DNA of 21,121 nt from a virus. Its lineage: Duplodnaviria > Heunggongvirae > Uroviricota > Caudoviricetes. Position 1 is the first letter of the stretch; every line of letters starts with the position of its first letter. Positions 1 through 17,000 of this stretch are shown one piece after another. Where the stretch lies: positions 1-21,121 of the IMG/VR virus record IMGVR_UViG_2778261276_000011. One strand, given 5' to 3'. The translations under genes were made by a program, and so were the position numbers. The notes beneath the pieces are model-generated. The model made no database searches. It saw nothing but the letters and a program-made list of their open reading frames with translations, and was not told where the DNA came from.

Positions 1-146
1 CTATTTATGAAAATTTTTCGGGAAAAAGCGTGTCGGTACTTCTCGTGTATAACTCATTGTTTTTTCATCAATCACATCCGTAAAAGGTCCGACATGAAAG
101 TGCCCGAAAAAGACGTTTTTGAGCACTTCCATGTCGGACCCTGCAT
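1..146 (+). promoter_or_regulatory. cosB: cosB-like terminase recognition region, immediately right of where cosN would lie
   Basis: Positions 1-17 (CTATTTATGAAAATTTT) match the lambda left end just inside the cohesive end, as recalled from memory. An 11-bp element GGTCCGACATG (86-96) recurs as its exact reverse complement CATGTCGGACC (131-141), with a related GTGTCGGTAC at 30-39 and an AT-rich stretch between them. This parallels the lambda R3 / IHF site / R2 (inverted) / R1 arrangement. It sits directly upstream of the Nu1 gene. Confidence 0.6.
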
Positions 147-164
147 TTGATATGGAAATGTTTT

Positions 165-713
165 ATGAAGGTTAATAAAAAGAAGCTCGCGGAAATTTTC
201 AACGTGGATCCACGAACGATTGAACGCTGGCAGTCTCAGGGGCTCTCTTGTGTCTCTGGTGGTAGTAAGGGGGTTGAATCTGTATTTGATACCGCCATGG
301 CAATTCAGTGGTATGCGCAGCGCGAAGCCGATATTGAAAACGAAAAACTCCGCAAAGAGACCGAGGATTTGCGTGCGGCTGCGGAATCAGATTTACAACC
401 CGGCACCATTGACTATGAGCGCTACCGACTCACAAAAGCACAGGCTGATGCACAGGAACTGAAAAATGCCCGCGAAGAAGGGCTGGTACTGGAAACGGAA
501 TTGTTTACCTTCATTCTGCAACGTGTGGCACAGGAGATTTCGGGGATACTTGTACGTGTGCCGCTGACATTACAGCGTAAATATCCGGATATTTCACCGT
601 CACACCTTGATGTGGTGAAAACTGAAATCGCAAAAGCCTCCAACGTTGCAGCTAAAGCTGGTGAGAACGTAGGCGGGTGGATTGATGATTTCAGACGCAC
701 AGAAGGCAGCTAA
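165..713 (+). CDS. nu1: terminase small subunit (lambda Nu1 family)
   Basis: Translation [27 protein letters not shown]... aligns along its length with lambda gpNu1 (MEVNKKQLADIFGASIRTIQNWQEQGM...). The product is about 182 aa, similar to lambda Nu1. The ATG at 165 is the first ATG in the frame (the ORF track begins at an upstream TTG). The 3' end overlaps the start of A, as in lambda. Confidence 0.9.
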
Positions 714-2601
714 TGCAGCCGGTGCGATAGCAACAGGGCTTGTATCTCTCAATATTCCGGTACCACTGACGACAGTTCAGTGGGCTGATCAGCATTATTA
801 TCTGCCAAAAGAGTCTTCATATACTCCCGGGCAATGGGAAACACTGCCGTTTCAGGTTGCCATCATGAACAGCATGGGGAATGACCGGATCCGCACCGTT
901 AATCTGATTAAATCGGCGCGTGTTGGTTACACCAAAATGCTGTTGGGGGTGGAGGCTTATTTTATTGAACACAAATCCCGTAACAGCCTGCTTTTTCAGC
1001 CGACAGATTCTGCGGCAGAAGATTTTATGAAATCCCATGTCGAACCAACGATAAGAGACGTTCCTGTATTACTGGAGCTGGCTCCGTGGTTTGGCAGAAA
1101 ACATCGGGACAACACGCTTACCCTGAAACGTTTCTCCTCCGGTGTGGGATTCTGGTGTCTGGGCGGAGCTGCTGCCAAAAACTACCGTGAAAAATCTGTG
1201 GATGTGGTCTGCTATGACGAACTCTCCTCGTTTGAACCGGATGTGGAAAAAGAAGGTTCACCAACTCTGCTTGGCGATAAGCGTATCGAAGGTTCGGTAT
1301 GGCCTAAATCCATACGCGGCTCAACGCCCAAAATTAAAGGTTTTTGCCAGATTGAAAAAGCCGCGAACGAATCTGCACATTTTATGCGGTTTTATGTGCC
1401 ATGCCCTCATTGTGGTGAAGCCCAGTATCTGAAGTTTGGCGATGATGCGACAACCTTTGGCCTGAAATGGGAGAAGGGCAAGCCGGAGACGGTGTATTAC
1501 CTGTGTGAACATAATGGCTGCGCGATCCGTCAGTCGGAACTTGACCAGACCGACGGGCGGTGGATTTGTGACAATACCGGGATGTGGACGCGTGACGGTC
1601 TGACATTTTACAGCGCCGGTGATGAGGAAATCCCGCCACCGCGCTCAATCTCGTACCACATCTGGACGGCATACAGCCCGTTCACCACCTGGGTACAGAT
1701 TGTTTATGACTGGCTTGATGCACTGAAGGATCCGAATGGCGTCAAGACGTTCATTAACACCACGCTGGGGGAGCCTTATGAAGAGGCTGTGGCAGAAAAA
1801 CTGAGCTTTGAGTTATTGCTGGAAAAAGTCTGCCACTATGATGCGCAGGTTCCCCTGCGGGTGGTTTACCTGACCGCAGGGATCGACTCTCAGAAAAACC
1901 GTTATGAGATTTATGTCTGGGGCTGGGCTCCTGGCGAAGAAGCTTTTCTGATTGACAAGCAGATCATCATGGGGAGACCGGAAGATGAGGACACCCTTAA
2001 ACGCGTTGATGCCGTGATCCGGAAAAAATACCGTCATGCAGATGGCACTGAAATTTCCATTTCCCGCGTCTGCTGGGATACCGGTGGTATTGACCAGGAC
2101 ATTGTGTATCAGCGATCCAGAAAACACGGCACTTTTTTTGTGCTCCCCATCAAAGGGGCGTCGGTGTACGGCAAGCCGGTGATCACCATGCCAAAAAAGC
2201 GAAACCAGCGTGGGGTGTTTTTGTGTGAGGTGGGTTCCGATACCGTCAAGGAAATGCTGTATGCGCGTTTTGCCCTGCCGGTGGTATCTGCCAGTGAAGT
2301 CGCACCGTATACCTTCCGTTTTCCGGATAACCCGGACATTTTTTCTGATGTTGAAGCTAAACAACTCGTGGCAGAAGAGCTGGTTGAAAAAGTTGTGAAC
2401 GGGCGGGTGAAACTCCAGTGGGATGCCAGAAAACGGCGTAATGAAGCTCTGGACTGTCTGGTGTATGCCTATGCAGCGCTGCGCATTTCCGTTCAGCGGT
2501 GGCAACTGGATCTGGATGCACTGGCCCGCGCCAGAAGAGATGAACAGGACGACGATGAAATGACTATTGAAGAAATCGCGGCTGCTCTGAGTGGAGGATA
2601 A
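685..2601 (+). CDS. A: terminase large subunit (lambda gpA family)
   Basis: The 638-aa product aligns end to end with lambda gpA from memory, with shared blocks such as YYLPKESx[68 protein letters not shown] and RRNEALDC. The start is the ATG at 685; the track's TTG at 682 is one codon upstream. Confidence 0.95.
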
Positions 2602-2604
2602 GTG

Positions 2605-2814
2605 ATGATTTATACGCATGAAATGCTATGCGATGCCCGCCGGGCGTTACATGAACTGATGATCGGACGTGCTGTGGTTTCCGTCAGCAAGGACGGGCGT
2701 CAGGTTCAGTATTCGCGGGCGACAATTGGTGAACTGCGTCAGTATATTGAAGAGCTGGAAAGTGCGCTGGGTGTATCCGGACGGCGTCGTGGCCCGGCAG
2801 GAGTGGGGCTGTGA
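2605..2814 (+). CDS. W: head-tail joining protein (lambda gpW family)
   Basis: The roughly 69-aa product (ARRALHELMIGRAVVSVSKDGRQVQYSRATIGELRQYIEELE...RRRGPAG) parallels lambda gpW ([27 protein letters not shown]...YIAELE...RRRGPAG). It lies directly after A, as in lambda. Confidence 0.85.
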   Translation: MIYTHEMLCDARRALHELMIGRAVVSVSKDGRQVQYSRATIGELRQYIEELESALGVSGRRRGPAGVGL

Positions 2815-3677
2815 ACGGGGAACTGGTGGATATTCATGGGCAGCCTTTACGGCAAAGCATGGGATATTCTGGTGGTGGTTCCGGGTTCGGTGGGCAAATG
2901 GCAGAATGGCTGCCTGCACCGGAAAGTGCCGACGTGGCGCTCTTACCTTCCATTCATCTGGGTAACGCCCGCGCGGATGAGCTGGTCCGTAACAACGGTA
3001 TTGCATCGAATGCAGTGGAAATTCATAAGGATCATATTGTCGGGCACATGTTTCGTCTGAGTTACCGTCCCAACTGGCGCTGGCTGGGGATGTCGGAAGC
3101 AGATTCACATGCTTTTATTGAAGATGTTGAGGCGGCGTGGATGGAATACTGCGATCCGGTGTTTGGTACGATGGATGTGGAAGGGCGTCGTTCGTTTACC
3201 GAATTCATTCGTGAAGGGGTGGGGGTCCATACGTTTAACGGTGAAATTTTTGTCCAGCCCGTATGGGATGCGGAATCCACGTCATTATTCCGGACGAAAT
3301 TCAAAACCATCAGCCCGAAGCGTGTCAGTACACCCGGTTATGGTACCGGCGATCGTTTTATGCGTGCCGGGGTGGAAATAAACCGACACGGAAAAGCGCT
3401 GGCCTACCATGTTCAGGATGATGACTGGCCCGGCTACGGTGTCAGTAAATGGACACGAATTACGGCAACACTGCCTTCCGGACGACCGGGAATGATCCAT
3501 GTGTTTCAGCCACAGGAAGACGGGCAGACCCGCGGGGCCAACCAGTTTTATTCTGTAATGGAGCGTCTCAAGATGCTCGACACACTGCAGGCCACGCAAC
3601 TGCAGTCGGCGGTGGTTCGCGCCATTTATGTCTATTATCTCCCCGTAGTTGTCGCCACCATTCATCAACTCCACTAA
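2811..3677 (+). pseudogene. B: portal protein (lambda gpB family), 3'-truncated: only about the N-terminal 273 codons are portal-like
   Basis: The product aligns with the lambda gpB N-terminal half (GGGSGFGGQ, LLP...GNARAD.LVRNNG, HIVG..FRLS.RP.WR.LG, FNGE.FVQ, HVF.P.EDGQTRGAN.FYSVME..KMLDTLQ.TQLQSA). Similarity stops after ...QSAVVRAIY near 3630, and the frame terminates 15 codons later, whereas lambda gpB is about twice as long. GTG start overlapping the W stop. Confidence 0.85.
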
Positions 3678-3753
3678 AACCCTTGATATGTCTGGAATGT
3701 CGTTTTTTGTATTTATGATGACCGTTCATTACCTTTCGTGTTTTTCGCGGTTT

Positions 3754-3807
3754 TGTGTATTGCAATGTGTATTGCAAGTTGGCGTTTGGATGGGGTGTGT
3801 ATTGCAA
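3754..3807 (+). repeat. three direct copies of TGTGTATTGCAA immediately upstream of int (two in tandem at 3754-3777, a third at 3796-3807)
   Basis: Exact 12-bp repeats read directly from the sequence. Their position 20-70 bp upstream of the integrase start suggests arm-type or regulator binding sites. A related ATTGCAA motif recurs at the right end of the element (11110-11148). Confidence 0.6.
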
Positions 3808-3826
3808 ATTGACGTGTAGGCTACAT

Positions 3827-5068
3827 ATGGCTATCGAGAATAAACTGACTGACAAACTTCTGAAAAGTCTTGCAGGTAAGCCGCAGGACAGACAAAAAAT
3901 CATGGCTGATGGGCGGGGGCTATCTGTTCGTGTAAGCGTGGTTGGGGGAATTAGTTTCGTTTTTTACTATCGTATTGGCGGCAGGGATGCCCCTCCGGTA
4001 TGGCTGACCCTTGGGCGTTATCCTGATATGTCTCTGGCAGCCGCCAGGAGATTACGCGACCAGTGCCGTGAATGGCTGGCGGAAAATCTGGATCCTCGCA
4101 GACAAATAAAACTTGTAGCTGAAAAAAACATGCGCCCTGTAACTGTAAGGGATGCGGTGCTTTACTGGTACGATAATCACGCCAGGACAGCCAGAAAGCA
4201 GCATGAGTATTTAATAAAAAGATTTGAAAAGCATATTTTTCCATATATCGGAGATATGGCTATAGAACAGTGCAAATTGCATACCTGGCTTACTGTATTT
4301 GACAGAATTAAAAAAAATGCTCCTGTTATGTCTGGTGCTATTTTTCTTGATATTAAACAGGCGTTACGTTTTTGCCGTATCAGGCAATACATTAGTTGCG
4401 ATCCATTCGGTGATATTAACGTTAGTTATGTTGGACGTTCAGCAGGCATAAGGGATCGTGTTCTGAGTATTAATGAAGCCGCTGACGTATGGTCTTATGC
4501 CTATGGCAACAATTTACTTACCCTTTCATCAATACATAACCGAAGAATTATGGTTATCTGCCTGGTGTTTGGTTGCCGTCAGCAGGAGGCGCGGTTATCC
4601 ACTTGGGAAGAATGGGATTTAAAAAACTGGATTTGGACAGTTCCAAAAGAGCACAGCAAGAACGGCGAGGTTATTGTAAGACCAGTCCCTGATGGAATAA
4701 AACAATGGGTTATTAATCTTTATGCGGAAACAAAGCACCGGGATTGTGTTATCGGTAGATCACTGAAGCGAGCGACAATAACAGGAGCAGCAAGCCGGAT
4801 ATGCAGGCGGCTAGGGCATGATGTAAATGGTCTGTGGTGCATACATGATTTCAGGCGTACATTTTCAACAATGCTTAACGATATGGGTGCCGATCCTTAT
4901 ATTGTAGAGCTTCTGCTTGGTCATAAAGTTAAAGGTGTGGCGGGTGTTTATAATAAAAGCAAGCATGCAAAGAAAAAACTTGAGGTTCTTAATATGTGGG
5001 TTAATTACCTTAACACGATAGCCGGATTTAATAATAACGTTATTGAACTGAGTAAAGAGGTTGTTTGA
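3827..5068 (+). CDS. int: tyrosine site-specific integrase, P4-like family
   Basis: The 413-aa product has an N-terminal arm-binding-type domain (LTDKLLKSL...DGRGLSVRVS..G.ISFVFYYR) and a C-terminal catalytic region with HDFRRT and LLGH...AGVYNKS (H-x-x-R and a Tyr nucleophile). The first ATG at 3827 is taken as start; the ORF track begins at an upstream alternative start. Confidence 0.9.
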   Translation: MAIENKLTDKLLKSLAGKPQDRQKIMADGRGLSVRVSVVGGISFVFYYRIGGRDAPPVWLTLGRYPDMSLAAARRLRDQCREWLAENLDPRRQIKLVAEKNMRPVTVRDAVLYWYDNHARTARKQHEYLIKRFEKHIFPYIGDMAIEQCKLHTWLTVFDRIKKNAPVMSGAIFLDIKQALRFCRIRQYISCDPFGDINVSYVGRSAGIRDRVLSINEAADVWSYAYGNNLLTLSSIHNRRIMVICLVFGCRQQEARLSTWEEWDLKNWIWTVPKEHSKNGEVIVRPVPDGIKQWVINLYAETKHRDCVIGRSLKRATITGAASRICRRLGHDVNGLWCIHDFRRTFSTMLNDMGADPYIVELLLGHKVKGVAGVYNKSKHAKKKLEVLNMWVNYLNTIAGFNNNVIELSKEVV

Positions 5069-5069
5069 T

Positions 5070-5327
5070 ATGTCAGTTTATTCACTTGTTGATGAAAAAG
5101 ATTTTACTGCAATGCCGGATATTGATCGTGTCATTCGTGAAAAAGAATGCGTGGCACTTACTACGCTGGCAAATTCAACACGCTGGAAACTGGAAAAGAC
5201 AGGTAAGTTCCCAAAACGTATTAAGATTGGTGAACGTGCCGCTGGCTATCGTCTCTCGGAGATTCAGGCGTGGATCCGTGGCGATTGGCACCCAGGATGG
5301 AAACCGGAAAAAACAAAACAGCAATAA
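5070..5327 (+). CDS. alpA: AlpA-family phage transcriptional regulator (small HTH protein)
   Basis: The roughly 85-aa product carries the AlpA-like motif IDRVIREKECVALTTLANSTRWKLEKTGKFPKRIKIGERAAGYRLSEIQAWI. It starts 2 nt after the int stop, the classic int-alpA arrangement of P4-like elements and enterobacterial PICIs. Confidence 0.8.
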   Translation: MSVYSLVDEKDFTAMPDIDRVIREKECVALTTLANSTRWKLEKTGKFPKRIKIGERAAGYRLSEIQAWIRGDWHPGWKPEKTKQQ

Positions 5328-5343
5328 CCAGGAGATAAACACA

Positions 5344-5369
5344 GCCCCGCTCAATGCGGGGTTTTTTGT
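5344..5369 (+). terminator. rho-independent terminator downstream of alpA
   Basis: GC-rich hairpin CCCCGC-TCAAT-GCGGGG followed by TTTTTTGT. Confidence 0.7.
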
Positions 5370-5386
5370 ATGTGAGGTAAAAAGCG

Positions 5387-5965
5387 ATGAATAAAAATAT
5401 TGCCGTGACGGGCAAAGGTGACGCTCGTCTAGTAAAAAAATTCTGTGATATTCGTGATCTGGTCGTTCTGCGCTTTGATGGTGTGAACGTTCGCGTGGTG
5501 TATCTGAACGGCGATCCGTGGTTTGTTGCAGTTGACGTGTGCGCTGCGCTGGAAATTGTTGATCACAAGGTTGCGTTACGCCGTCTCGATGATGATGAAA
5601 AGGGGGAGTGTTTAATACCCACCCTTGGCGGAAATCAAACAATGCGAACTGTATGCGAGTCAGGTTTCTACAAACTAATAGCCCGTAGCCGCAAAGCAAC
5701 GACGCCTGGCACGTTCGCCCATCGTTTCAGTAACTGGGTATTCAGAAATGTGATACCGGGTATCAGAAAAACGGGGGCTTATGGTATCCCGTGGGGCGCA
5801 TTACAGGATTTTTCCCGCCGTAAAGAGCAATATCAGATAAGTGCCAGCGAGAAGGGGAGGGAGCTACAGGCATGTAAGCGCAAAAAGCGTGAGCTGGAGG
5901 AAGAAGAAAAAAGGCTGATACGTGAATATCAGCCTGAGTTTTACTTTGGTGAGCGTATTCAGTAA
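5387..5965 (+). CDS. Bro-N domain protein (antirepressor-like) with a charged coiled-coil C-terminus
   Basis: The N-terminal region F..VNVRVVYLNGDPWFVAVDVCAALEI...RRLDDDEK...GG.Q....V.ESGFYKLI.RSRK....F..WV...VIPGIRKTGAYG matches the Bro-N consensus. RBS GAGG upstream; C-terminal KRKKRELEEEEKRL. Confidence 0.75.
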   Translation: MNKNIAVTGKGDARLVKKFCDIRDLVVLRFDGVNVRVVYLNGDPWFVAVDVCAALEIVDHKVALRRLDDDEKGECLIPTLGGNQTMRTVCESGFYKLIARSRKATTPGTFAHRFSNWVFRNVIPGIRKTGAYGIPWGALQDFSRRKEQYQISASEKGRELQACKRKKRELEEEEKRLIREYQPEFYFGERIQ

Positions 5966-6122
5966 CCACTCGCAGTGCTGATTATACGGTACATCGTGTT
6001 AACCGGGAAGCTACCCACCAGCAAGGCAAAATCTTCTGCTAAAAAATGATATATGGTCAGCCGTCCGGAAAGCATGAAATTTTACAAAAATGGAAAATGA
6101 AGATTTTTATTGTGCTGGTGGG

Positions 6123-6154
6123 TAAAAACAAAAAGCGCCCCGTTGCCGGAGCGC
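6123..6154 (-). terminator. rho-independent terminator, leftward-reading
   Basis: On the minus strand a 7-bp stem GCGCTCC / GGGGCGC (one G.U pair) with a 6-nt loop is followed by TTTTTGTTTTT. It may also act weakly on plus-strand transcripts from the Bro-N gene. Confidence 0.55.
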
Positions 6155-6248
6155 CTTTGTGAACAATTAACCTACTGCGCAAAAAATGAATCTGAGCAGT
6201 GGGATTATATCAACCGTGTGACGAAGCGCCACAATTGCCGGATAACAG

Positions 6249-6278
6249 GCAAAACAAAGGCCACCCGCTACGGTGGCC
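6249..6278 (-). terminator. rho-independent terminator, leftward-reading, at the end of the leftward cassette
   Basis: Perfect 7-bp stem GGCCACC / GGTGGCC with loop CGCTAC; on the minus strand it is followed by TTTGTTTTG. Confidence 0.6.
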
Positions 6279-6396
6279 CTTCAACACAAGCTACACGTTA
6301 TCCCCAACGCATGAGCATCACCAACAATGCCACATTTGCGGCTGGTGGGCAAAGCTTTAGCGGAATTTTTTCCCTGTTGCCTGGAGTGGGTAATGA

Positions 6397-6579
6397 TTAC
6401 TTGTATCGCTTATTCCTGCACAAAACAGGGCTGCTCTTTTTGATGAAATCCTCAAGCAAAAAACACTCTGTTGATGCTCTTGGTAATTCTCTGGTGGAAG
6501 GATGGGGTTTTATCCCCCATTTTCGTTTACGTTCTTCCAGAAAGGAGGTGAGTATATCTAGTTTCTGTGCGTCCATCAT
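6397..6579 (-). CDS. hypothetical small protein (60 aa), third ORF of the leftward cassette; coding status uncertain
   Basis: ORF in the same frame as the two upstream leftward ORFs. Only a weak RBS is present, and a plus-strand terminator-like hairpin (6502-6528) lies inside it, so this may instead be non-coding. Confidence 0.3.
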   Translation of the reverse strand: MMDAQKLDILTSFLEERKRKWGIKPHPSTRELPRASTECFLLEDFIKKSSPVLCRNKRYK

Positions 6580-6599
6580 TTTTCTCTTGGATACTTCTT

Positions 6600-6650
6600 T
6601 GTGCCATGGATCCTCACACCACGGCGCTGATAGTGGTTATTTCTGCTCTT
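6600..6650 (-). repeat. copy A of a roughly 50-bp intergenic repeat
   Basis: About 80% identical to 6851-6905, with a core CACCACGGCGCTG shared exactly. It spans the stop codon and downstream spacer of the 6637-6834 ORF. The two copies are 255 bp apart, a multiple of 3. Confidence 0.6.
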
Positions 6651-6834
6651 CAACATCACCATGTCGTGATGTTTTCCAAGTATGCGACCCCATTTTTGTG
6701 CGCCTGTACTCTTTTAAGAACTTCTCAAGGCCAAACGCACATGGCGCGAATCTCTCCTGTTCTTGTTCGCTTACCGCGTTTTTGCGTTGTTTTTTCCTGG
6801 ATGAAGATAATTTCTTTAATGATTTGTCAGTCAT
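6637..6834 (-). CDS. hypothetical small basic protein (65 aa), second ORF of the leftward cassette
   Basis: ATG preceded by AGGT about 8 nt upstream. The product MTDKSLKKLSSSRKKQRKNAV... is lysine/arginine-rich. No family recognised. Confidence 0.35.
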   Translation of the reverse strand: MTDKSLKKLSSSRKKQRKNAVSEQEQERFAPCAFGLEKFLKEYRRTKMGSHTWKTSRHGDVEEQK

Positions 6835-6850
6835 CGTAGATACCTGTAAC

Positions 6851-6905
6851 CCAGTGCGCCACAGTTCACCGCACCACGGCGCTGGTGATGGTTACTCCTG
6901 CTCTT
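6851..6905 (-). repeat. copy B of the roughly 50-bp intergenic repeat
   Basis: See copy A. It spans the stop codon and downstream spacer of the RHH gene and contains the small palindrome CACCA-N6-TGGTG. Confidence 0.6.
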
Positions 6906-7071
6906 TGGCCTTGCGACGCTGGCGGCGTTTGATCTCGCCTTGCATTGACGCAATGATGAATTGTGATGTGCTTTCGCCTGATTCTTTCACTGATTCCATG
7001 GCGTTTACTATTTCGTGTGGTACACGAGCCTTTAGAGCTTGTGATTTTGCGTTTGTTGTACCCGTTGCCAT
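6892..7071 (-). CDS. ribbon-helix-helix (Arc/MetJ/CopG-like) DNA-binding protein, candidate repressor of the element
   Basis: The 59-aa product MATGTTNAKSQALKARVPHEIVNAMESVKESGESTSQFIIASMQGEIKRRQRRKAKEQE parallels the beta-strand/helix/helix layout of P22 Arc. GAGG RBS 7 nt upstream. It is divergently transcribed from the rightward operon across an operator-bearing intergenic region. Confidence 0.55.
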   Translation of the reverse strand: MATGTTNAKSQALKARVPHEIVNAMESVKESGESTSQFIIASMQGEIKRRQRRKAKEQE

Positions 7072-7099
7072 TTCTATTCCTCTGGTGGATTGGTGGGGA

Positions 7100-7180
7100 A
7101 CAGTATACACAGAAAAAACACAAATAAAACTCTTGACGTGGACCACACCTAAAACATATAGTGGGCCACACCTTAAAATT
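7100..7180. promoter_or_regulatory. divergent promoter region with direct-repeat operators
   Basis: Rightward: TTGACG (7133-7138), 18 bp spacer, TATAGT (7157-7162). Leftward: a -10-like TATACT on the minus strand about 30 bp upstream of the RHH start. Two direct repeats, TGGACCACACCTAAAA (7139-7154) and TGGGCCACACCTTAAAA (7162-7178), flank the rightward -10. Confidence 0.5.
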
Positions 7181-7270
7181 ATCAAGGCGCATAAATGCAA
7201 AGCCCCGCAAGTGTCGTTACCACTCGCAGGGCTTCTAACCACCAACGATAGAAAGAGTATCGAGGTAGCT

Positions 7271-7474
7271 ATGAGAAATCATACCACACACCCGCAAGGG
7301 CGGGACTCGCACAACCTGAATAAATACATCTGGCGTTTTATCGCCCTGAGCACGGCACAACCGCGCGTGATTACCATCGAGGCCACCAGCGAACAGGAAG
7401 CACGCCAGCAATCTCCGGCTGGCTGCGTGATGGTATTCGCCGCCCGTATTCGCCAGGAGGTGCGCCATGATTAA
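7271..7474 (+). CDS. small protein (67 aa), possibly Icd-like (host cell division inhibitor family of P4-like elements)
   Basis: GAGG RBS. Its TAA stop overlaps the next gene's ATG region. The motif YIWRFIALSTAQPRVITIEATSEQEARQQ...VFAARIRQ resembles Icd-like proteins as I recall them; not verified. Confidence 0.45.
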   Translation: MRNHTTHPQGRDSHNLNKYIWRFIALSTAQPRVITIEATSEQEARQQSPAGCVMVFAARIRQEVRHD

Positions 7475-7679
7475 CCTGTCACTTACCGACCTTAACCGCA
7501 TTCAGTTTCGTGAGAAATTTACCGGGCAGTTGTTGGTTAATGTGGATAAAGGTCGCGTGGTGTGTAATTACCACCTGCCAGATGAAGCAATTGTCGCAAC
7601 AAGGGAATCATTACAGGAACTCGCAGAGCGTGCCGGAATGATTAACGCGAATATTCAGGGGGTGAGACATGTGCAATAA
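7467..7679 (+). CDS. hypothetical protein (70 aa), operon member
   Basis: Strong RBS AGGAGGTG; start overlaps the upstream stop; compact head-to-tail operon. Confidence 0.6.
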   Translation: MINLSLTDLNRIQFREKFTGQLLVNVDKGRVVCNYHLPDEAIVATRESLQELAERAGMINANIQGVRHVQ

Positions 7680-7911
7680 CCCCCGTCCGGACGCAGCCGC
7701 CGAAGCTATCAGAACGCTGATGCACGCGCTGATTGATATTTCATGCACGGCAGCAACCGCAGAAAAACACATTACCATAGAGCCGGAATATACAGGGGCA
7801 ATAATCCCGCATTCGCTGGCATACGCACAGCTTACCGCTGATATGGCACTGAATGAGGCCAAAGCTATCCTGATTGCTGATTGTGAAAATGGGGGGGGTG
7901 GTTATGCGTGA
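7669..7911 (+). CDS. hypothetical protein (80 aa), operon member
   Basis: RBS GGGGGTGAG; start overlaps the upstream gene by 11 nt. Confidence 0.6.
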   Translation: MCNNPRPDAAAEAIRTLMHALIDISCTAATAEKHITIEPEYTGAIIPHSLAYAQLTADMALNEAKAILIADCENGGGGYA

Positions 7912-8137
7912 TGATCGTTTTAATGCCCTGAAACAGGAATTTGATGGCGCACCGGAAGATACAGATATTGCGCTGTTATGTGTTGCTGACATGGTAAAAG
8001 CTGCATGTTTTTTACTGGAAACCGCCGAACATTCAGGAACGGGTAGCGATATTCTCAATATTGCGTCGGACTATGCGGAATATGTGGCAGAGACGCGTTA
8101 CAGAAGTAAATTCCCGGAGGGGGTGAGCCATGCATGA
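7904..8137 (+). CDS. hypothetical acidic protein (77 aa), operon member
   Basis: ATG at 7904 preceded by GGGGGGGTGG; overlaps the upstream stop by 8 nt. The ORF track's earlier start at 7874 is a non-ATG codon. Confidence 0.55.
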   Translation: MRDDRFNALKQEFDGAPEDTDIALLCVADMVKAACFLLETAEHSGTGSDILNIASDYAEYVAETRYRSKFPEGVSHA

Positions 8138-8363
8138 TATTTACAATGACACAGTAGACCATGCATACAGCGCACTTGCTTACAGTGAAAACATGCTTGA
8201 AATATTGCGCTTATGGCTTGAAACGCTTGGCGATAATGAAAGAGATAAACGCAACAGCAATATTGCAACAGCATTAATAACGCTTCTTGAGCCTGTAATA
8301 AATGAACTGCAAGAAATAGACATCTTGCACGACAGATATAAAGAGCCACACACCGGAGAATAA
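8130..8363 (+). CDS. hypothetical protein (77 aa), operon member
   Basis: RBS GGAGGGGGTGAG; start overlaps the upstream stop by 8 nt. Confidence 0.6.
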   Translation: MHDIYNDTVDHAYSALAYSENMLEILRLWLETLGDNERDKRNSNIATALITLLEPVINELQEIDILHDRYKEPHTGE

Positions 8364-8368
8364 AAACC

Positions 8369-8668
8369 ATGAAAAAGAAAAATTCTGGCTTTACTGCCAG
8401 CGGCCCCGCTCGGCCTGAAATCCGCCCAGGCGATATTTTCCGGGATAACTACGGCGGCACGGTAACGATTAAAAGTATTGCCGGACGGTGCGTTACTTAC
8501 CGCCGTGATGGGTACAGCTACGACTGCGTGATGCCTGTTTATCAGTTACGGCGTGATTTTTCGCTGGTACAGGCCACACCACGCAGACAGCCCACCAGCA
8601 ACGCAAAGGCACGGGCAAATATTCAGAAAATGAAAAACATGATTAACGCATTCAGGGGTAAAAAATGA
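8369..8668 (+). CDS. hypothetical protein (99 aa), possibly DUF4222-like
   Basis: RBS GGAGA. The motif IRPGDIFRDNYGGTVTIKSI...YRRDGYSYDCVMPVYQLRRDFSLV resembles a small phage/enterobacterial family from memory. Its stop overlaps the rep start. Confidence 0.55.
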   Translation: MKKKNSGFTASGPARPEIRPGDIFRDNYGGTVTIKSIAGRCVTYRRDGYSYDCVMPVYQLRRDFSLVQATPRRQPTSNAKARANIQKMKNMINAFRGKK

Positions 8669-10080
8669 AACTGGCACCGAACTTAAAAAAACAGCCGCAC
8701 GACAAAATGACCGAAGTCATTATTTTTGCGGGTAGTGATGCCTGGGCGCACGCGAAACAGTGGCAGGAACAGGACGGGCGACTTGCTGGCGACAACGTGC
8801 CGCCTGTATGGCTTGGAGACAACCAGCTTGACGAACTGGCAGACCTGAAAATCATCGATGATGGTCGCTATTGTGTCCGGCTGTACAAGGCAGGCCACAT
8901 CAAGCCGTCAAATATTAATGCCATCGGGCAAAAGCTGGCGGCGGCAGGTGTACGGGATGCGAATTATTACCCTGAGGGAATGCACAGCCAGAAGCTGGAG
9001 AACTGGCACGACTACCTGCAACGGATCCGCGAACAGGCAGAGCGCGGGGAAATACTTACTGACGAGCAATACAGCCAGCGAAAAACCACACTACCAATGA
9101 GCATTGGGTCCGCAGGATACGACACACAGCTTGATTATGTCGTTAAGGGCGTGATTCCGGCTAATTCGTTGTGCAGCACATACGGCGCGAGCGGTTCCTA
9201 TAAATCGTTCCTCGCGTGTTCCTGGGCGTGTCATGTTGCCACGGGTCGCCACTGGGGAGGCCGCAGGGTGGCGCATGGTTCGGTGATGTATGTTGTCGGT
9301 GAAGGGGGTATAGGTGTCCCCCGCCGTATCAAGGCATGGGAAATCGTTAATGATGAACGGGTGGAAAATTTGTACCTGGTAAACCGCCCGATTTTTCCGG
9401 CTGTCCCGCTTGATGTTGATGAAATGGTTATCGCGTCCCGCCAGGTTGAACGGGAAACGGGTAAACCGGTACGCATGATTATTCTGGATACGCTGGCGCG
9501 TTGCTTTGGTGGTAATGATGAAAATGACGCGCGGGATATGGGGGCGTTTATCCGTGGATGTGACGAACTGAAACGACGCACAGGGGCCACGGTGCTGGTG
9601 GTTCACCATTCCGGCAAGGATGAAACAAAGGGGGCACGTGGTTCCAGTGCATTTCGTGCATCTCTGGACGCTGAATACCGTATTCGCCGTGAAGGTGCGG
9701 ACAGTGAAGCCCTGGTTATCTCCTGCACCAAAATGAAGGACGCGGAGGAACTGAAAGAGGCTGCATATGATTTACGCGTGGTGGAGCTTTTTACCGACGC
9801 TGACAAGGAGTTAATCACGTCGCTGGTGGTTGTGGATAAGCCGCGCCCACCAGTTGAACTGGAGCGCATCGAGGAAGCCGGGAACAAGACGGAGAATCAC
9901 GCCGCGCTATGGGGCTGTATCCGTTCACGCACACAGCGCGGCGATAAATGCACTATCCCGTTATTGCGTGATGATATGAAAAAGCTGGGGTATGAGATGA
10001 AGCACTTTAGTCGCTGGTTACGCAAGCTGGAAAGTGACGACGTAATCGCTATTGACGGCGATGATGTTCACCCGATGTAA
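8665..10080 (+). CDS. replication initiator / helicase-type ATPase (RecA-like, AAA_25/RepA-like) with a C-terminal DNA-binding region
   Basis: Walker A-like GASGSYKS and Walker B-like VRMIILDTLARCFGG with the downstream VLVVHHSGKD typical of RepA/DnaB-like RecA-fold ATPases. The gene is immediately followed by an iteron array. Confidence 0.8.
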   Translation: MKLAPNLKKQPHDKMTEVIIFAGSDAWAHAKQWQEQDGRLAGDNVPPVWLGDNQLDELADLKIIDDGRYCVRLYKAGHIKPSNINAIGQKLAAAGVRDANYYPEGMHSQKLENWHDYLQRIREQAERGEILTDEQYSQRKTTLPMSIGSAGYDTQLDYVVKGVIPANSLCSTYGASGSYKSFLACSWACHVATGRHWGGRRVAHGSVMYVVGEGGIGVPRRIKAWEIVNDERVENLYLVNRPIFPAVPLDVDEMVIASRQVERETGKPVRMIILDTLARCFGGNDENDARDMGAFIRGCDELKRRTGATVLVVHHSGKDETKGARGSSAFRASLDAEYRIRREGADSEALVISCTKMKDAEELKEAAYDLRVVELFTDADKELITSLVVVDKPRPPVELERIEEAGNKTENHAALWGCIRSRTQRGDKCTIPLLRDDMKKLGYEMKHFSRWLRKLESDDVIAIDGDDVHPM

Positions 10081-10082
10081 AA

Positions 10083-10281
10083 AGTGGGGAACAAAAGTGG
10101 GGAGAGTGGGGAATTTAACAAAAAATCAACGTTACTCCCCACTTTCCCACCTGTATATACCCAAAAAAGTGGGGAGTAAAAAACACATTGAAAAACATCA
10201 CGTTAGAATCACAAAAAAACGAGGTGGGGAGCAAGTGGGGAATTTTAAAAAGTGGGGAACAAAAGTGGGGAGTGGTGGGGA
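10083..10281 (+). repeat. iteron-type replication origin: about 10 copies of (A/G)GTGGGGA flanking an A-rich segment
   Basis: AGTGGGGA at 10083, 10096, 10105, 10168, 10234, 10251 and 10264; GGTGGGGA at 10223 and 10274; one inverted copy TCCCCACT at 10136. Clustered copies are spaced about 10-17 bp apart. The array starts 3 nt after the rep stop. Confidence 0.8.
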
Positions 10282-10533
10282 ATGAACAGAAAAACCAGAG
10301 ATAAAACAGTGCCAAAATATCGCGCATTAGACATGACAGAGCACGCCTTAAAGGTGGCAATCAGAACGATAGACCGCCACGCCGGGGAAGGATACGCGAA
10401 AGCACATCCCGAACTGATAAGCGCATTCATGGCCACGACGGCGGCAAACTTTGCCACGCTGACAGAACGGGAGATTGCCGAAGCGGAACAGGTGACAACC
10501 ATCAACGTTAAAACCGGAGAGCAGACAGCATGA
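10282..10533 (+). CDS. hypothetical protein (83 aa)
   Basis: The ATG uses the last iteron GGTGGGGA as its Shine-Dalgarno sequence. Its stop overlaps the SSB-like gene start (ATGA). Confidence 0.5.
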   Translation: MNRKTRDKTVPKYRALDMTEHALKVAIRTIDRHAGEGYAKAHPELISAFMATTAANFATLTEREIAEAEQVTTINVKTGEQTA

Positions 10534-10952
10534 CAGCACAGATAGCGGCTTACGGGCGGCTGGTGGCTGACCCACAGTTAAAGACCACCAGCAAAGGGAC
10601 ACAAATGGCGATGGCGAGTATGGCGGTTCCCCTGCCGTGCAGCCAAGCAGATGACGGAACGGCGACGATGTGGTTATCCGTCCTGGCGTTTGGCAGACAG
10701 GCCGACGCACTGGCAAAACACCACAAAGGCGAACTGGTGAGCGTGGCGGGTAACATGCAGGTAAGCCAGTGGACAGGCCAGAACGGCGAAACGCGGCAGG
10801 GCTGGCAGGTTATCGCAGACAGCGTAATCAGTGCCAGAACGGCGCGACCGGGCGGCAAAAAAGGCCAGCAGGGCCAGGCTACTGACGCACTGAACAGGGC
10901 AAAACAACAGGCGGGAAATGATGATCCGTACTGGGATAACATACCGTTTTAA
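10530..10952 (+). CDS. single-stranded DNA-binding protein, SSB family (short, divergent)
   Basis: OB-fold layout parallels E. coli SSB (IAAYGRLVADPQL... vs VILVGNLGQDPEV...; W.SVLAFGRQAD.LAKHHKGELV...QVSQWTGQNGETRQGWQV vs WHRVVLFGKLAEV...KGSQV...RKWTDQSGQDRYTTEV). A Gly/Gln-rich linker leads to a C-terminal tip DPYWDNIPF, reminiscent of the SSB acidic tail ending DDDIPF. Confidence 0.75.
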   Translation: MTAQIAAYGRLVADPQLKTTSKGTQMAMASMAVPLPCSQADDGTATMWLSVLAFGRQADALAKHHKGELVSVAGNMQVSQWTGQNGETRQGWQVIADSVISARTARPGGKKGQQGQATDALNRAKQQAGNDDPYWDNIPF

Positions 10953-10967
10953 GCAACGAGTGACAGA

Positions 10968-10995
10968 AGCCGGGATTTTTCCCGGCTTTTTTGTG
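10968..10995 (+). terminator. rho-independent terminator ending the element's rightward operon
   Basis: Stem AGCCGGG / CCCGGCT with loop ATTTTT, followed by TTTTTGTG. Confidence 0.75.
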
Positions 10996-10998
10996 CGC

Positions 10999-11033
10999 AA
11001 AAAAAATCCCCCGGGATGAGGTTCCGGGGGATT
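10999..11033 (-). terminator. rho-independent terminator, leftward-reading; with the previous hairpin forms a bidirectional terminator pair
   Basis: Perfect 10-bp stem AATCCCCCGG / CCGGGGGATT with a 9-nt loop, preceded on the plus strand by an A8 run (a T-run on the minus strand). Confidence 0.7.
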
Positions 11034-11127
11034 TCACGCCGCTAACGTGATTAGCGCTGAATGACTCTGTGGTACAAGGAGTAAAACCACGGCATCATGA
11101 TTTCATGATTTGCAACAACAGTCAATG

Positions 11128-11148
11128 TCATTGCAAAAAATGCAATGA
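11128..11148. promoter_or_regulatory. palindromic operator-like site TCATTGCA-AAAAA-TGCAATGA
   Basis: Perfect 8-bp inverted repeat around an A5 centre, inside a region with repeated CATGATTT (x2) and TTGCAA motifs; upstream of the ORF at 11211. Confidence 0.4.
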
Positions 11149-11210
11149 TAATTAAAATCATGAATGACTTTTCGTTATGTTTATTTTTTAGTCAAAGAGG
11201 AATCTCATTT

Positions 11211-11417
11211 ATGGGAACACAGAAGCCGGGCGGTGTATCCGTGTACATCAGCCCCGATATTATCGCCGCACTTAATGCGCGCTTTGAGGAGAACGCAGAG
11301 GCAGGAAAAAAAATCGGCCTTGATCCGTTGTGCCTGGTGAAGCCGTCAGTCGGCTGGATGGTACGCAGCGATTTACGCGCTGCGCTTGGTATGAATCAGC
11401 CTCATGGGGGTAAGTAA
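11211..11417 (+). CDS. hypothetical small protein (68 aa) translationally coupled to the capsid gene remnant
   Basis: RBS AAGAGGAA. Its stop overlaps the E start (TAATG). It sits where lambda has D but does not resemble lambda gpD. It is unclear whether this belongs to the prophage or the element. Confidence 0.45.
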   Translation: MGTQKPGGVSVYISPDIIAALNARFEENAEAGKKIGLDPLCLVKPSVGWMVRSDLRAALGMNQPHGGK

Positions 11418-12046
11418 TGACAGCGCCGCAACTGGTAAGCACACCAACGCTACTGAAAAATATCGGGCGCGAAGATGTGCCGGAATTTAAATTTAATCCA
11501 CTCTTTACTACGTTGTTCTTTCCGAACGTCGCTACTTTCAGCACCAGAGATATTGCACTTGATACGCTGGATATTGAAAACGTGGTCATGAGTCCGTTTT
11601 GTTCTCCAATGTCAGGCAGCCAGGTTATGCGTGACAAAGGTTTCACAACGAACACGTTCACGCCGGGTTATATGAAGCCCAAACACGTTATTGATCCCAC
11701 CAAAACAATCATGCGCATGGCTGGAGAACAGATCGGCAATGGTCAGTCTTCCCCGGCACTACGCCGCGTAAAAATGGTTCACGACAGCCAGAAAAAACAG
11801 CTTGCTGCCATCAAAGCGCGTGTTGAATGGCTGGCGGTCAATGCCATCACAACAGGCCGTAACGTTATTGAAGGCGAAGGCATTGAGCGTTATGAAATTG
11901 ACTGGGGATTACCCGCAACCAATCATATTACGCAGGCTGGCGGGAAAGAATGGTCAAAACAGGATGCCGAAACGTTTGATCCGATAAGCGACATTGAGGC
12001 TTACGCTGATTTTTCCAAAGGTACGGTATCCGGCAGGAAACACTGA
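11417..12046 (+). pseudogene. E: major capsid protein (lambda gpE family), N-terminal fragment of about 196 codons
   Basis: The product matches the lambda gpE N-terminal half (FKF.PLF..LFF, FTPGY.KPKH, ITQ.GG.EWSK.D..T.DP..DIEAYA). Homology ends after DIEAYA (about 12006) and the frame stops at 12046, whereas lambda gpE is much longer. Confidence 0.85.
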
Positions 12047-12717
12047 ATGAATGTACCCGTACGGAGCAGTCTGCCAGCCTGGTACTCTGGGAAATTGATC
12101 TGACAGAGATTGGCGGGGAGCGTTATTTTTTCAGTAATGAGCCTAACGAGAAGGGGGAGGCCGTCACCTGGCAGGGCCGGAAATATGAGGTGTATCCTGT
12201 TCAGGGAGCAGGGTTTGAAATGAAAGGCAAGGGAAGCAGCGCCCGCCCCACCCTGACGGTGTCCAACCTGTACGGGATGGTTACCGGGATGGTGGAGGAT
12301 TTACAGAGTCTGGCTGGCGGAACGGTGATCCGGCGTAAGGTTTACGCCCGTTTTCTGGATGCGGTGAATTTTACTAACGGAAACAGTGAAGCCGATCCGG
12401 AACAGGAGGTGATCAGTTACTGGCGTATTGAACAGTGCAGCGATCTGACGGCGGTGACGGCAACGTTTGTTCTGGCCTCGCCAGCGGAGACAGACGGTGC
12501 GGTTTTCCCGGGACGTACCATGCTGGCCAATACCTGTACCTGGACCTATCGCGGTGATGAGTGCGGTTATCACGGTCCGGCTGTCGCGGATGAATATGAC
12601 CAGCCGACGTCTGATATCACGAAGGATAAATGCAGTAAATGCCTGAGTGGCTGTAAGTCACGTCATAACGTCGGTAACTTTGGCGGTTTCCTTTCCATCA
12701 ATAAACTTTCGCAGTAA
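12028..12717 (+). pseudogene. L: tail tip protein (lambda gpL family), start codon lost at a deletion junction
   Basis: From 12028 the frame translates to IRQETLNECTRTEQSASLVLWEIDLTEIGGERYFF..., matching lambda gpL from residue 4 (MQDIRQETLNEC...) to the C-terminus (...GNFGGFLSINKLSQ). There is an in-frame stop at 12007-12009 and no ATG before the internal GTG at 12190. Confidence 0.8.
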
Positions 12718-12721
12718 ATCC

Positions 12722-14070: not shown

Positions 14071-17000
14071 ATGGGTAAAGGTGGCAGCAAGGGGCACACT
14101 CCTCGCGAAGCGAAAGATAACCTGAAATCCACGCAGTTACTGAGCGTGATTGATGCGATCAGTGAAGGGCCGATTGAAGGTCCGGTGGATGGCTTAAAAA
14201 GCGTGCTGCTGAACAGTACGCCGGTGCTGGACACTGAGGGGAATACCAACATATCCGGTGTCACGGTGGTGTTCCGGGCTGGTGAGCAGGAGCAGACTCC
14301 GCCGGAGGGATTTGAATCCTCCGGCTCCGAGACGGTGCTGGGTACGGAAGTGAAATATGACACGCCGATCACCCGCACCATTACGTCTGCAAACATCGAC
14401 CGTCTGCGCTTTACCTTCGGTGTACAGGCACTGGTGGAAACCACCTCAAAGGGTGACAGGAATCCGTCGGAAGTCCGCCTGCTGGTTCAGATACAACGTA
14501 ACGGTGGCTGGGTGACGGAAAAAGACATCACCATTAAGGGCAAAACCACCTCGCAGTATCTGGCCTCGGTGGTGATGGGTAACCTGCCGCCGCGCCCGTT
14601 TAATATCCGGATGCGCAGGATGACGCCGGACAGCACCACAGACCAGCTGCAGAACAAAACGCTCTGGTCGTCATACACTGAAATCATCGATGTGAAACAG
14701 TGCTACCCGAACACGGCACTGGTCGGCGTGCAGGTGGACTCGGAGCAGTTCGGCAGCCAGCAGGTGAGCCGTAATTATCATCTGCGCGGGCGTATTCTGC
14801 AGGTGCCGTCGAACTATAACCCGCAGACGCGGCAATACAGCGGTATCTGGGACGGAACGTTTAAACCGGCATACAGCAACAACATGGCCTGGTGTCTGTG
14901 GGATATGCTGACCCATCCGCGCTACGGCATGGGGAAACGTCTTGGTGCGGCGGATGTGGATAAATGGGCGCTGTATGTCATCGGCCAGTACTGCGACCAG
15001 TCGGTGCCGGATGGCTTTGGCGGCACGGAGCCGCGCATCACCTGTAATGCGTACCTGACCACACAGCGCAAGGCGTGGGATGTGCTCAGTGATTTTTGCT
15101 CGGCGATGCGCTGTATGCCGGTATGGAACGGGCAGACGCTGACATTCGTGCAGGACCGGCCGTCGGATAAGGTGTGGACCTATAACCGCAGTAATGTGGT
15201 GATGCCGGATGATGGCGCGCCGTTCCGCTACAGCTTCAGCGCCCTGAAGGACCGCCATAATGCCGTTGAGGTGAACTGGATTGACCCGAACAACGGCTGG
15301 GAGACGGCGACAGAGCTTGTGGAGGACACGCAGGCCATTGCCCGTTACGGTCGTAACGTCACGAAGATGGATGCCTTTGGCTGTACCAGCCGGGGGCAGG
15401 CACACCGCGCCGGGCTGTGGCTGATTAAAACGGAACTGCTGGAAACGCAGACCGTGGATTTCAGCGTGGGTGCTGAAGGGCTTCGCCATGTACCGGGCGA
15501 TGTTATTGAAATCTGTGATGATGACTATGCCGGTATCAGCACCGGTGGTCGTGTACTGGCGGTGAACAGCCAGACCCGGACGCTGACGCTCGACCGTGAA
15601 ATCACGCTGCCATCCTCCGGTACCACGCTGATAAGCCTGGTTGACGGAAGTGGCAATCCGGTCAGCGTGGAGGTTCAGTCCGTCACCGACGGCGTGAAGG
15701 TAAAAGTGAGCCGTGTTCCTGACGGTGTTGCTGAATACAGCGTATGGGGGCTGAAGCTGCCGACGCTGCGCCAGCGACTGTTCCGCTGCGTGAGTATCCG
15801 TGAGAACGACGACGGCACGTATGCCATCACCGCCGTGCAGCATGTGCCGGAAAAAGAGGCCATCGTGGATAACGGGGCGCACTTTGACGGCGAACAGAGT
15901 GGCACGGTGAATGGTGTCACGCCGCCAGCGGTGCAGCACCTGACCGCAGAAGTCACTGCAGACAGCGGGGAATATCAGGTGCTGGCGCGCTGGGACACGC
16001 CGAAGGTGGTGAAGGGCGTGAGCTTCCTGCTTCGCCTGACCGTGGCAGCGGATGACGGCAGTGAGCGGCTGGTCAGCACGGCCCGGACGACGGAAACCAC
16101 ATACCGCTTCAGGCAGCTGGCGCTGGGGCGGTACACGCTGACAGTCCGGGCAGTAAATGCCTGGGGGCAGCAGGGAGACCCGGCGTCGGTATCGTTCCGG
16201 ATTGCCGCACCGGCAGCACCGTCGAGGATTGAGCTGACGCCGGGCTATTTTCAGATAACCGCCACGCCGCATCTTGCCGTTTATGACCCGACGGTACAGT
16301 TTGAGTTCTGGTTCTCGGAAAAGCAGATTGCGGATATCAGACAGGTTGAAACCAGCGCGCGTTATCTTGGTACGGCGCTGTACTGGATAGCCGCCAGTAT
16401 CAATATCAAACCGGGCCATGATTATTACTTTTATATCCGCAGTGTGAACACCGTTGGCAAATCGGCATTCGTGGAGGCCGTCGGTCGGGCGAGCGATGAT
16501 GCGGAAGGTTACCTGGATTTTTTCAAAGGCAAGATAACCGAATCCCATCTCGGCAAGGAGCTGCTGGAAAAAGTCGAGCTGACGGAGGATAACGCCAGCA
16601 GACTGGAGGAGTTTTCGAAAGAGTGGAAGGACGCCAACGATAAGTGGAATGCCATGTGGGCTGTCAAAATTGAGCAGACCAAAGACGGCAAACATTATGT
16701 CGCGGGTATTGGCCTCAGCATGGAGGACACGGAGGAAGGCAAACTGAGCCAGTTTCTGGTTGCCGCCAATCGTATCGCGTTTATTGACCCGGCAAACGGG
16801 AATGAAACGCCGATGTTTGTGGCGCAGGGCAACCAGATATTCATGAACGACGTGTTCCTGAAGCGCCTGACGGCCCCCACCATTACCAGCGGCGGCAATC
16901 CTCCGGCCTTTTCCCTGACACCGGACGGAAAGCTGACCGCTAAAAATGCGGATATCAGTGGCAGTGTGAATGCGAACTCCGGGACGCTCAGTAATGTGAC

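Follow-up and report, generated by a model that had tools for sequence, protein, structure and literature searches.

A phage 21-type cosB site predicted at the left end of a defective lambdoid prophage that carries an inserted PICI

The window, by which we mean the whole stretch of 21,121 nucleotides that was analysed, opens with an AT-rich leader of 164 bases followed by two overlapping genes for the subunits of a terminase (Table 1). The first gene, terS, starts at the ATG at position 165, the TTG at 147 of the mechanical ORF call not being the start, and its product is a full-length match to the Pfam family Phage_Nu1 (E = 2e-83) with an N-terminal domain that matches solved TerS DNA-binding domains. 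The second gene, terL, is annotated as the large terminase in a prophage with 99.9% identity. The leader itself contains three repeats built on a TGTCGG core and arranged in direct, inverted and direct order, with an IHF-like site amid an AT-rich spacer: GTGTCGGTAC at window 30-39, GGTCCGACATG on the opposite strand at 86-96, and CATGTCGGACC at 130-140. Its first 17 bases, CTATTTATGAAAATTTT, have the same letters as bp 25-41 of lambda and of phage 21. The original prediction had read these elements as a cosB site of the lambda-type layout (R3, IHF site, inverted R2, and R1) built from a repeat sequence that is not lambda's, and on both counts it was right, the layout coinciding with the annotated features of phage 21 and the boxes of lambda being of the CGTTTCC type; of its coordinates, those of the first two repeats stand, and only the third, given as 131-141, needs to be moved to 130-140.

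Table 1. Features of the left end of the window, with their counterparts in known phages
Feature	Position	Strand	Counterpart or composition
cosN-to-R3 segment, including the I2 region	1..25	+	bases 1-17 match lambda and phage 21 bp 25-41
R3, predicted TerS binding site, AAGCGTGTCGGTACTT	26..41	+	phage 21 R3 bp 50-65 (OL657228, M81255), 15/16 identical
I1, IHF-like site AAACAATGAGTTA	50..62	-	one mismatch against the consensus WATCAANNNNTTR; position that of phage 21 I1
R2, predicted TerS binding site, inverted; plus strand AAGGTCCGACATGAAA	84..99	-	phage 21 R2 bp 107-122, 16/16 identical
Extended dyad over R2, inner spacer, and R1	86..140		25-nt arms, 88% complementary
R1, predicted accessory TerS binding site, TTCCATGTCGGACCCTG	127..143	+	phage 21 R1 bp 150-166, 14/17 identical
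terS, small terminase subunit, 182 aa	165..713	+	phage 21 gp1 orthologue; gp1 94%, lambda Nu1 53% identical
terL, large terminase subunit, 638 aa	685..2601	+	Pfam GpA_ATPase and GpA_nuclease; overlaps the end of terS

Complex cosB sites have three R sequences, one of them (R2) in inverted orientation, with an IHF site that separates R3 from R2 (PMC4669245). When window 1-720 was compared with phage records by megablast, the left end of phage 21 was 88.3% identical, and window base 1 aligned to bp 25 of the records that begin at the cohesive end. The cos annotation of phage 21 was taken from three deposited records, namely X02501, M81255, and OL657228, and places R3 at 50-65, I1 at 74-86, R2 at 107-122 on the opposite strand, R1 at 150-166, and the start of terS at 189; in a three-way alignment of the window, lambda, and phage 21, the four cos features fall on window 26-41, 50-62, 84-99, and 127-143. 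Because base 1 aligns to bp 25 and the alignment with both lambda and phage 21 is free of gaps through R3, the R3 of the window can be numbered as bp 50-65, so that window 32 and 35 are its bp 56 and 59; both are G, as in phage 21, and lambda has T and C there. The three differences between R1 of the window and that of phage 21 sit where natural 21-type sites vary. The I2 annotated in M81255 (record 196-210) equals window 6-20, and I2 is needed for the termination of packaging (PMC4669245). The I1 of OL657228 (bp 74-86) coincides with its counterpart in the window, where IHF would presumably bind; matches to the IHF consensus are not above chance across the whole window (12 against 16 expected), so the weight given to I1 comes solely from its conserved position.

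The likeness to the cos of phage 21 extends to the whole layout of R3, I1, inverted R2, and R1, to the equal spacing from the cosN side, to the R-box core C[A/G]TGTCGG with G/G at bp 56/59, and to a terS that begins right after R1 and overlaps terL. The differences are that the DNA identity with the window is just 81.6% over the first 200 bases, that the inner R2-R1 spacer of the window is another haplotype, and that the cohesive end and TerL, which are taken up below, do not follow phage 21 as closely. We read window 1-164 as very probably the cosB of a cos site of phage 21 specificity, lying directly upstream of its cognate terS and of terL, and the site as one of the ordinary natural variants of a system, the phage 21 cosB/TerS pair, that is already known.

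The prophage to which this site belongs is no longer whole. Window 1-3630 is 99.9% identical to a prophage of E. coli RM8082, and matches to intact prophages end at 3630, inside the portal gene (N-terminal part at 2811-3630), whose truncated product covers positions 2-242 of the 354 of Pfam Phage_portal_2. What follows, from about 3630 to 12027, is an inserted module of the PICI type, with a tyrosine integrase (3827-5068), BRO-N, Icd-like, and DUF4222 genes, a RepA helicase (8665-10080), an SSB (10530-10952), and a capsid gene. The last of these is cut after ~200 codons at about 12027 and is fused there to a lambda-like L that is without its first three codons and thus has no start codon (region ~11417-12720); the lambda-like tail genes L, K, I, J, lom, and stf lie downstream of about 12027 at 96% identity. 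Deletion has removed the right end of the PICI together with those genes of the prophage that run from the portal C-terminus to M. The window is a defective composite of prophage and satellite without head genes, in which the PICI copy is a deletion derivative, and it is therefore not a viable packaged genome.

A similar portal/integrase junction is present in 63 complete E. coli genomes; E. coli strain 48 has the element as a clean insertion of 11.8 kb, by which the portal gene is divided. The portal/PICI junction of the window, taken as an exact stretch of 45-50 nt, had no match in IMG/VR or among the GTDB species-representative genomes. We considered the satellite in the portal gene as something new and rejected this, since it matches the published class of helper-embedded PICIs (HE-PICIs), which includes a B:Phage_portal_2:241 site (PMC10111431). 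In TUM9812 a related PICI lies inside terL (L007:3392-15929), the N-terminal part of the gene being found at 3392-4384 and the C-terminal part at 14976-15929, in keeping with the insertion sites in gene A that have been reported for HE-PICIs. In E. coli PapRG-04-4 (L017:530-1350), a PICI of the family inserted in the window bears a 21-type cos of its own at 70.6% identity, with R3 (CATGTCGGTAC) and R1 (CATGTCGGAGG) conserved, R2 degenerate, the overhang GGGCGGCAGACG, and a TerS of 194 aa that has M24 and a C-terminal extension. This copy stands in the comparison for the cos sites of Gram-negative PICIs, helper-embedded ones included; the cos of the window is that of the helper prophage and not of the PICI, being 99.9% identical to its counterparts in uninterrupted prophages.

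Defects in the prophage around it may mean that the site has ceased to serve its own genome. A stronger form of this reading, in which the leader is a 21-type cosB by descent only and has been disused since the prophage lost its head genes, is the alternative that survives best, and we give it appreciable, though less than even, credence. It accommodates the portal gene broken at about 3630 with a truncated HE-PICI next to it, the absence of everything from the portal C-terminus to M, and the L without its first three codons. The first 3630 bases nevertheless remain 99.9% identical to prophages whose portal and head genes are intact, and terS and terL are full length, so that any decay must be recent; moreover, a cos works in cis, so that the site could still be used by another phage in the same cell if that phage has a 21-specific terminase. 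Disuse would in any case bear on the current activity of the leader and not on its identity as a 21-type cosB.

The part of cos that would complete this cosB lies outside the window by its position and can be read from near-identical DNA. In RM8082 the 24 bases ahead of window base 1 are GGGCGGCAGCGGCGCGGATTTTCG, preceded by ...CCACG, with a predicted overhang GGGCGGCAGCGG (L006:2977-2988) and a cosQ, GGGTCCT, about 29 bp from the nick. An 11 kb metagenome contig (L019), which has the exact portal/PICI junction of the window and 7 mismatches over the first 6.7 kb, carries the same sequence as RM8082 on its minus strand just upstream of base 1, with cosQ and the cosN-like site; all three of the IMG/VR contigs with the cosB haplotype of the window (3/3) have the overhang GGGCGGCAGCGG, and cosQ and a partly symmetric cosN are present in them too. 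A cosN upstream of the window had been predicted, and in the near-identical contigs a cosN-like site is indeed found 24 bp before the equivalent of base 1; from these contigs, a full cosQ-cosN-cosB would be expected at this copy as well. The further hint of a record that begins at cos, as a packaged genome would, is not supported: the first base of the window is +25 relative to the nick and not +1, the upstream DNA runs through cosN in all the near-identical contigs found, the holin and lysozyme-family (GH108) genes of RM8082 precede cos by ~2-3 kb, as they do in the gene order of a prophage, and the window is a defective composite.

The predicted overhang is not that of phage 21. GGGCGGCAGCGG differs from the cohesive end of lambda and of phage 21 (GGGCGGCGACCT) at bp 8, 9, 11, and 12 and from that of Gifsy-1 (GGGCGGCAGCGT), a lambdoid prophage of Salmonella, at bp 12 only; it matched none among the phage records examined. 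Other lineages with a 21-type cosB have GGGCGGCGACCT (the majority), GGGCGGAAGGCG, or a GGTC-type overhang, and the 21-type cosB regions in IMG/VR fall into at least six overhang classes, including GGGCGGAAGGCG and GGTCATAGCACG, variation at bp 7-12 of the cohesive ends of lambda-like phages having already been reported (PMC4669245). The large terminase points the same way as the overhang, although by a marginal gap: its nearest phage homologue is gpA of Gifsy-1 at 83.4% identity, against 82% for gp2 of phage 21. Because GGGCGGCAGCGG is near the Gifsy-1 overhang and TerL is marginally closest to that of Gifsy-1, the packaging module appears to be a mosaic, in which a 21-type cosB and TerS N-terminus are joined to a Gifsy-1-like cosN and TerL, and the complete cos would not simply be that of phage 21. 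Likewise, a TerL marginally nearer to Gifsy-1 beside a TerS with 94% identity to gp1 suggests that cosN/TerL and cosB/TerS have been reassorted as modules. We nevertheless consider it rather unlikely that either the lineage forms a distinct cohesive-end or packaging compatibility group or the R2-R1 dyad is a hairpin selected beyond the binding of TerS.

The latter concerns the interval between R2 and R1, which forms an extended dyad (Table 1). It could be mainly or additionally a hairpin in nucleic acid, whether in the RNA of a late transcript that runs through cos into terS or as a cruciform in the DNA, and what speaks for this is that the 67-nt interval has a predicted RNA fold of -34.9 kcal/mol (z = -9), that all lineages, lambda and the PICI copy among them, fold into a long hairpin with a lineage-specific inner stem, and that in most lineages the inner 33 nt by themselves exceed shuffles in stability (z -1.4 to -3.9). 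Several observations speak against selection on a structure: a consensus fold (RNAalifold on a MAFFT alignment) has a covariation term of about zero (+0.3), and at the two most variable inner pairs, by inspection, all four left/right combinations occur, the commonest haplotype having the unpaired one, in a sample with only about eight independent inner-stem haplotypes; template-switch mutation in quasi-palindromes could, besides, mimic compensation. The sense and antisense strands of the R2-R1 interval fold about equally well, and the terminator scan returned a single match (127-157) against 0.5 expected in shuffles, which is at chance level, has a weak stem (three G-C pairs), and is distinct from the R2/R1 hairpin. 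Two inverted binding sites together with an A-run and a T-run account for most of the stability of the dyad, and we hold the hairpin to be an improbable account of the interval.

Conservation in relatives follows the boxes. In a set chosen by overall similarity and not by the boxes, namely five phages and seven E. coli prophages with 71-84% identity over the first 200 bases, the mean frequency of the top base is 0.89-0.94 in the boxes and I1 and 0.75-0.80 in the spacers (12 distinct sequences); 21 of the 25 columns of the segment 1-25 and 9 of the 13 columns of I1 are invariant, and R2 is kept. When IMG/VR was scanned for a pattern that fixes the cores of R2 and R1, 62 genuine cos regions were recovered, which comprise 26 distinct sequences, and the R3 core TGTCGGTACTTCTCG, on which there had been no selection, is uniform in 26 of 26. 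The conservation of the repeats in phages with similar Nu1 proteins, by which the original prediction was to be judged, therefore holds in both samples. With TerS aligned beside the sites, every phage with 21-type boxes carries the gp1-type TerS helix, natural TerS hybrids included, and changed R boxes accompany changed recognition helices: PhiR5_1 has altered boxes and a TerS with D20/T24, and the PICI-borne copy combines its degenerate R2 with M24. The boxes of the window thus agree with those of phage 21 in identity, position, and orientation, are conserved among relatives, and co-vary with the TerS helix.

It is this helix that links the site to a specificity. Each of the lambda and phage 21 systems prefers its own DNA to that of the other by a factor of more than 1000 (PMC4669245), and the contacts for recognition and discrimination were assigned by Feiss and co-workers to bp 56 and 59 of R3 and to TerS residues 20 and 24 (PMC4669245). 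The recognition helix of the window TerS is identical to that of gp1, with E20/S24 where lambda Nu1 has Q20/E24, and with E20 and S24 reading G:C at bp 56 and 59, the site would be expected to serve 21-specific terminases but not lambda-specific ones. The original prediction had instead seen a diverged Nu1 and, from it, a co-evolved terminase-cos specificity. The protein is indeed a Nu1 homologue with 53% identity to that of lambda, but its divergence is not new, being that of phage 21 gp1; similarly, boxes and TerS do match one another, but since both are in the phage 21 state, their co-evolution is the classical case of that phage, which was already established experimentally for lambda against 21 (PMC4669245). 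A new cosB specificity class, that is, an undescribed co-evolved pair apart from lambda, 21, and N15, would explain repeats that are unlike the CGTTTCC boxes of lambda and a TerS so far from Nu1; we accord it only a very small likelihood, for the boxes, bp 56/59, and residues 20/24 are all in phage 21 states, the TerS shares 94% identity with gp1, and this cos type is widespread, window 1-200 being matched in ~1,236 of 5,426 complete E. coli genomes. The alignment with phage 21 refutes it.

Statistics from the single sequence are mixed, and the case for cosB rests for that reason on the comparative data. TGTCGG occurs 10 times in the 21 kb window on both strands and three of these lie within the first 146 bp (Poisson P ~2e-5), whereas a search for the R-box core with up to two mismatches across the window was uninformative (50 matches against 58 expected). 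Chance repeats without function in an AT-rich leader have next to no probability. When the 164-bp segment is shuffled, three copies of some 6-mer turn up about a third of the time, and 22 of 2000 dinucleotide shuffles (1.1%) reach an exact inverted repeat of 11 nt, so that this inverted repeat is only modest support for the repeats. Against chance, sites defined by experiment lie at the same positions, in the same orientation, and with matching sequence, the spacers vary among relatives where the repeats are kept, and the repeats change together with the TerS helix; the comparative data refute the idea.

Among the lambda, phage 21, and N15 cos regions with which an alignment had been proposed, the window groups with phage 21, and the relations to the other systems are as follows. 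The cosB of lambda has a homologous architecture, with the IHF site and the extended R2/R1 dyad at equal positions and a TerS of the same fold family, but differs in its CGTTTCC-type R boxes at the same places, in T/C at bp 56/59, and in Q20/E24 of its TerS. Gifsy-1 shares the complex architecture with three R sequences, in addition to the cohesive end that is one base off and the nearest TerL, but has CAGATCC-type R boxes and the TerS helix RTVTAWQSQG, from which it follows that its cosB specificity differs from that of the window. N15 has a simple cosB; the I2-region bases after cosN are kept there (the first ~17 bases) and its terminase is of the lambda family, but it has a single R3 of unrelated sequence, is without I1, R2, and R1, and starts terS at bp 89 (PMC4669245). 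Its alignment with the window shows no similarity past the I2 region, and an N15-type simple cosB was rejected for the window, which has three R boxes and a terS at the equivalent of bp 189.

Natural TerS hybrids were also encountered (L008:865-1410, L013:764-1309, and L015:765-1310), borne by IdasGreatGrand, an O157:H7 prophage, and KKa019, in which the N-terminal ~100 residues are of the 21 type and the C-terminal ~80 are essentially identical to lambda Nu1. They always adjoin 21-type R boxes, and they are natural counterparts of the laboratory lambda-21 hybrids.

On the paradigm of lambda and phage 21, the 21-type cosB of the window would work in the following way. The N-terminal winged helix-turn-helix domains of TerS would bind the R boxes, and a bend made by IHF at I1 would present R3 and the inverted R2 jointly to TerS, R1 having an accessory role. 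Specificity would lie in the reading of R-box bp 56/59 (G:C, G:C) by TerS residues 20/24 (E, S). Bound TerS would then anchor TerL on cosN, which should lie at a fixed distance to the left, just outside the window, and the staggered nicks made by TerL would leave the 12-nt overhang, with packaging running rightward. Binding, bending, cutting, and activity are in this sense what analogy leads us to expect of this copy.

Since the 1980s the phage 21 cosB/TerS pair has served as the textbook counterpart of lambda, and the discovery value of one more instance is accordingly little. Its value lies in annotation: the cosB marks the packaging origin of a lambdoid prophage, the window is seen to be prophage DNA in chromosomal order, and the site leads to the prediction that helper terminases of 21 specificity could mobilise the region. 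Beyond the single locus, the comparative set that was assembled around it indicates that the modules of the packaging system, namely cosN with TerL, cosB with the N-terminal part of TerS, and the C-terminal part of TerS, reassort freely among the lambdoid prophages of E. coli and Salmonella.
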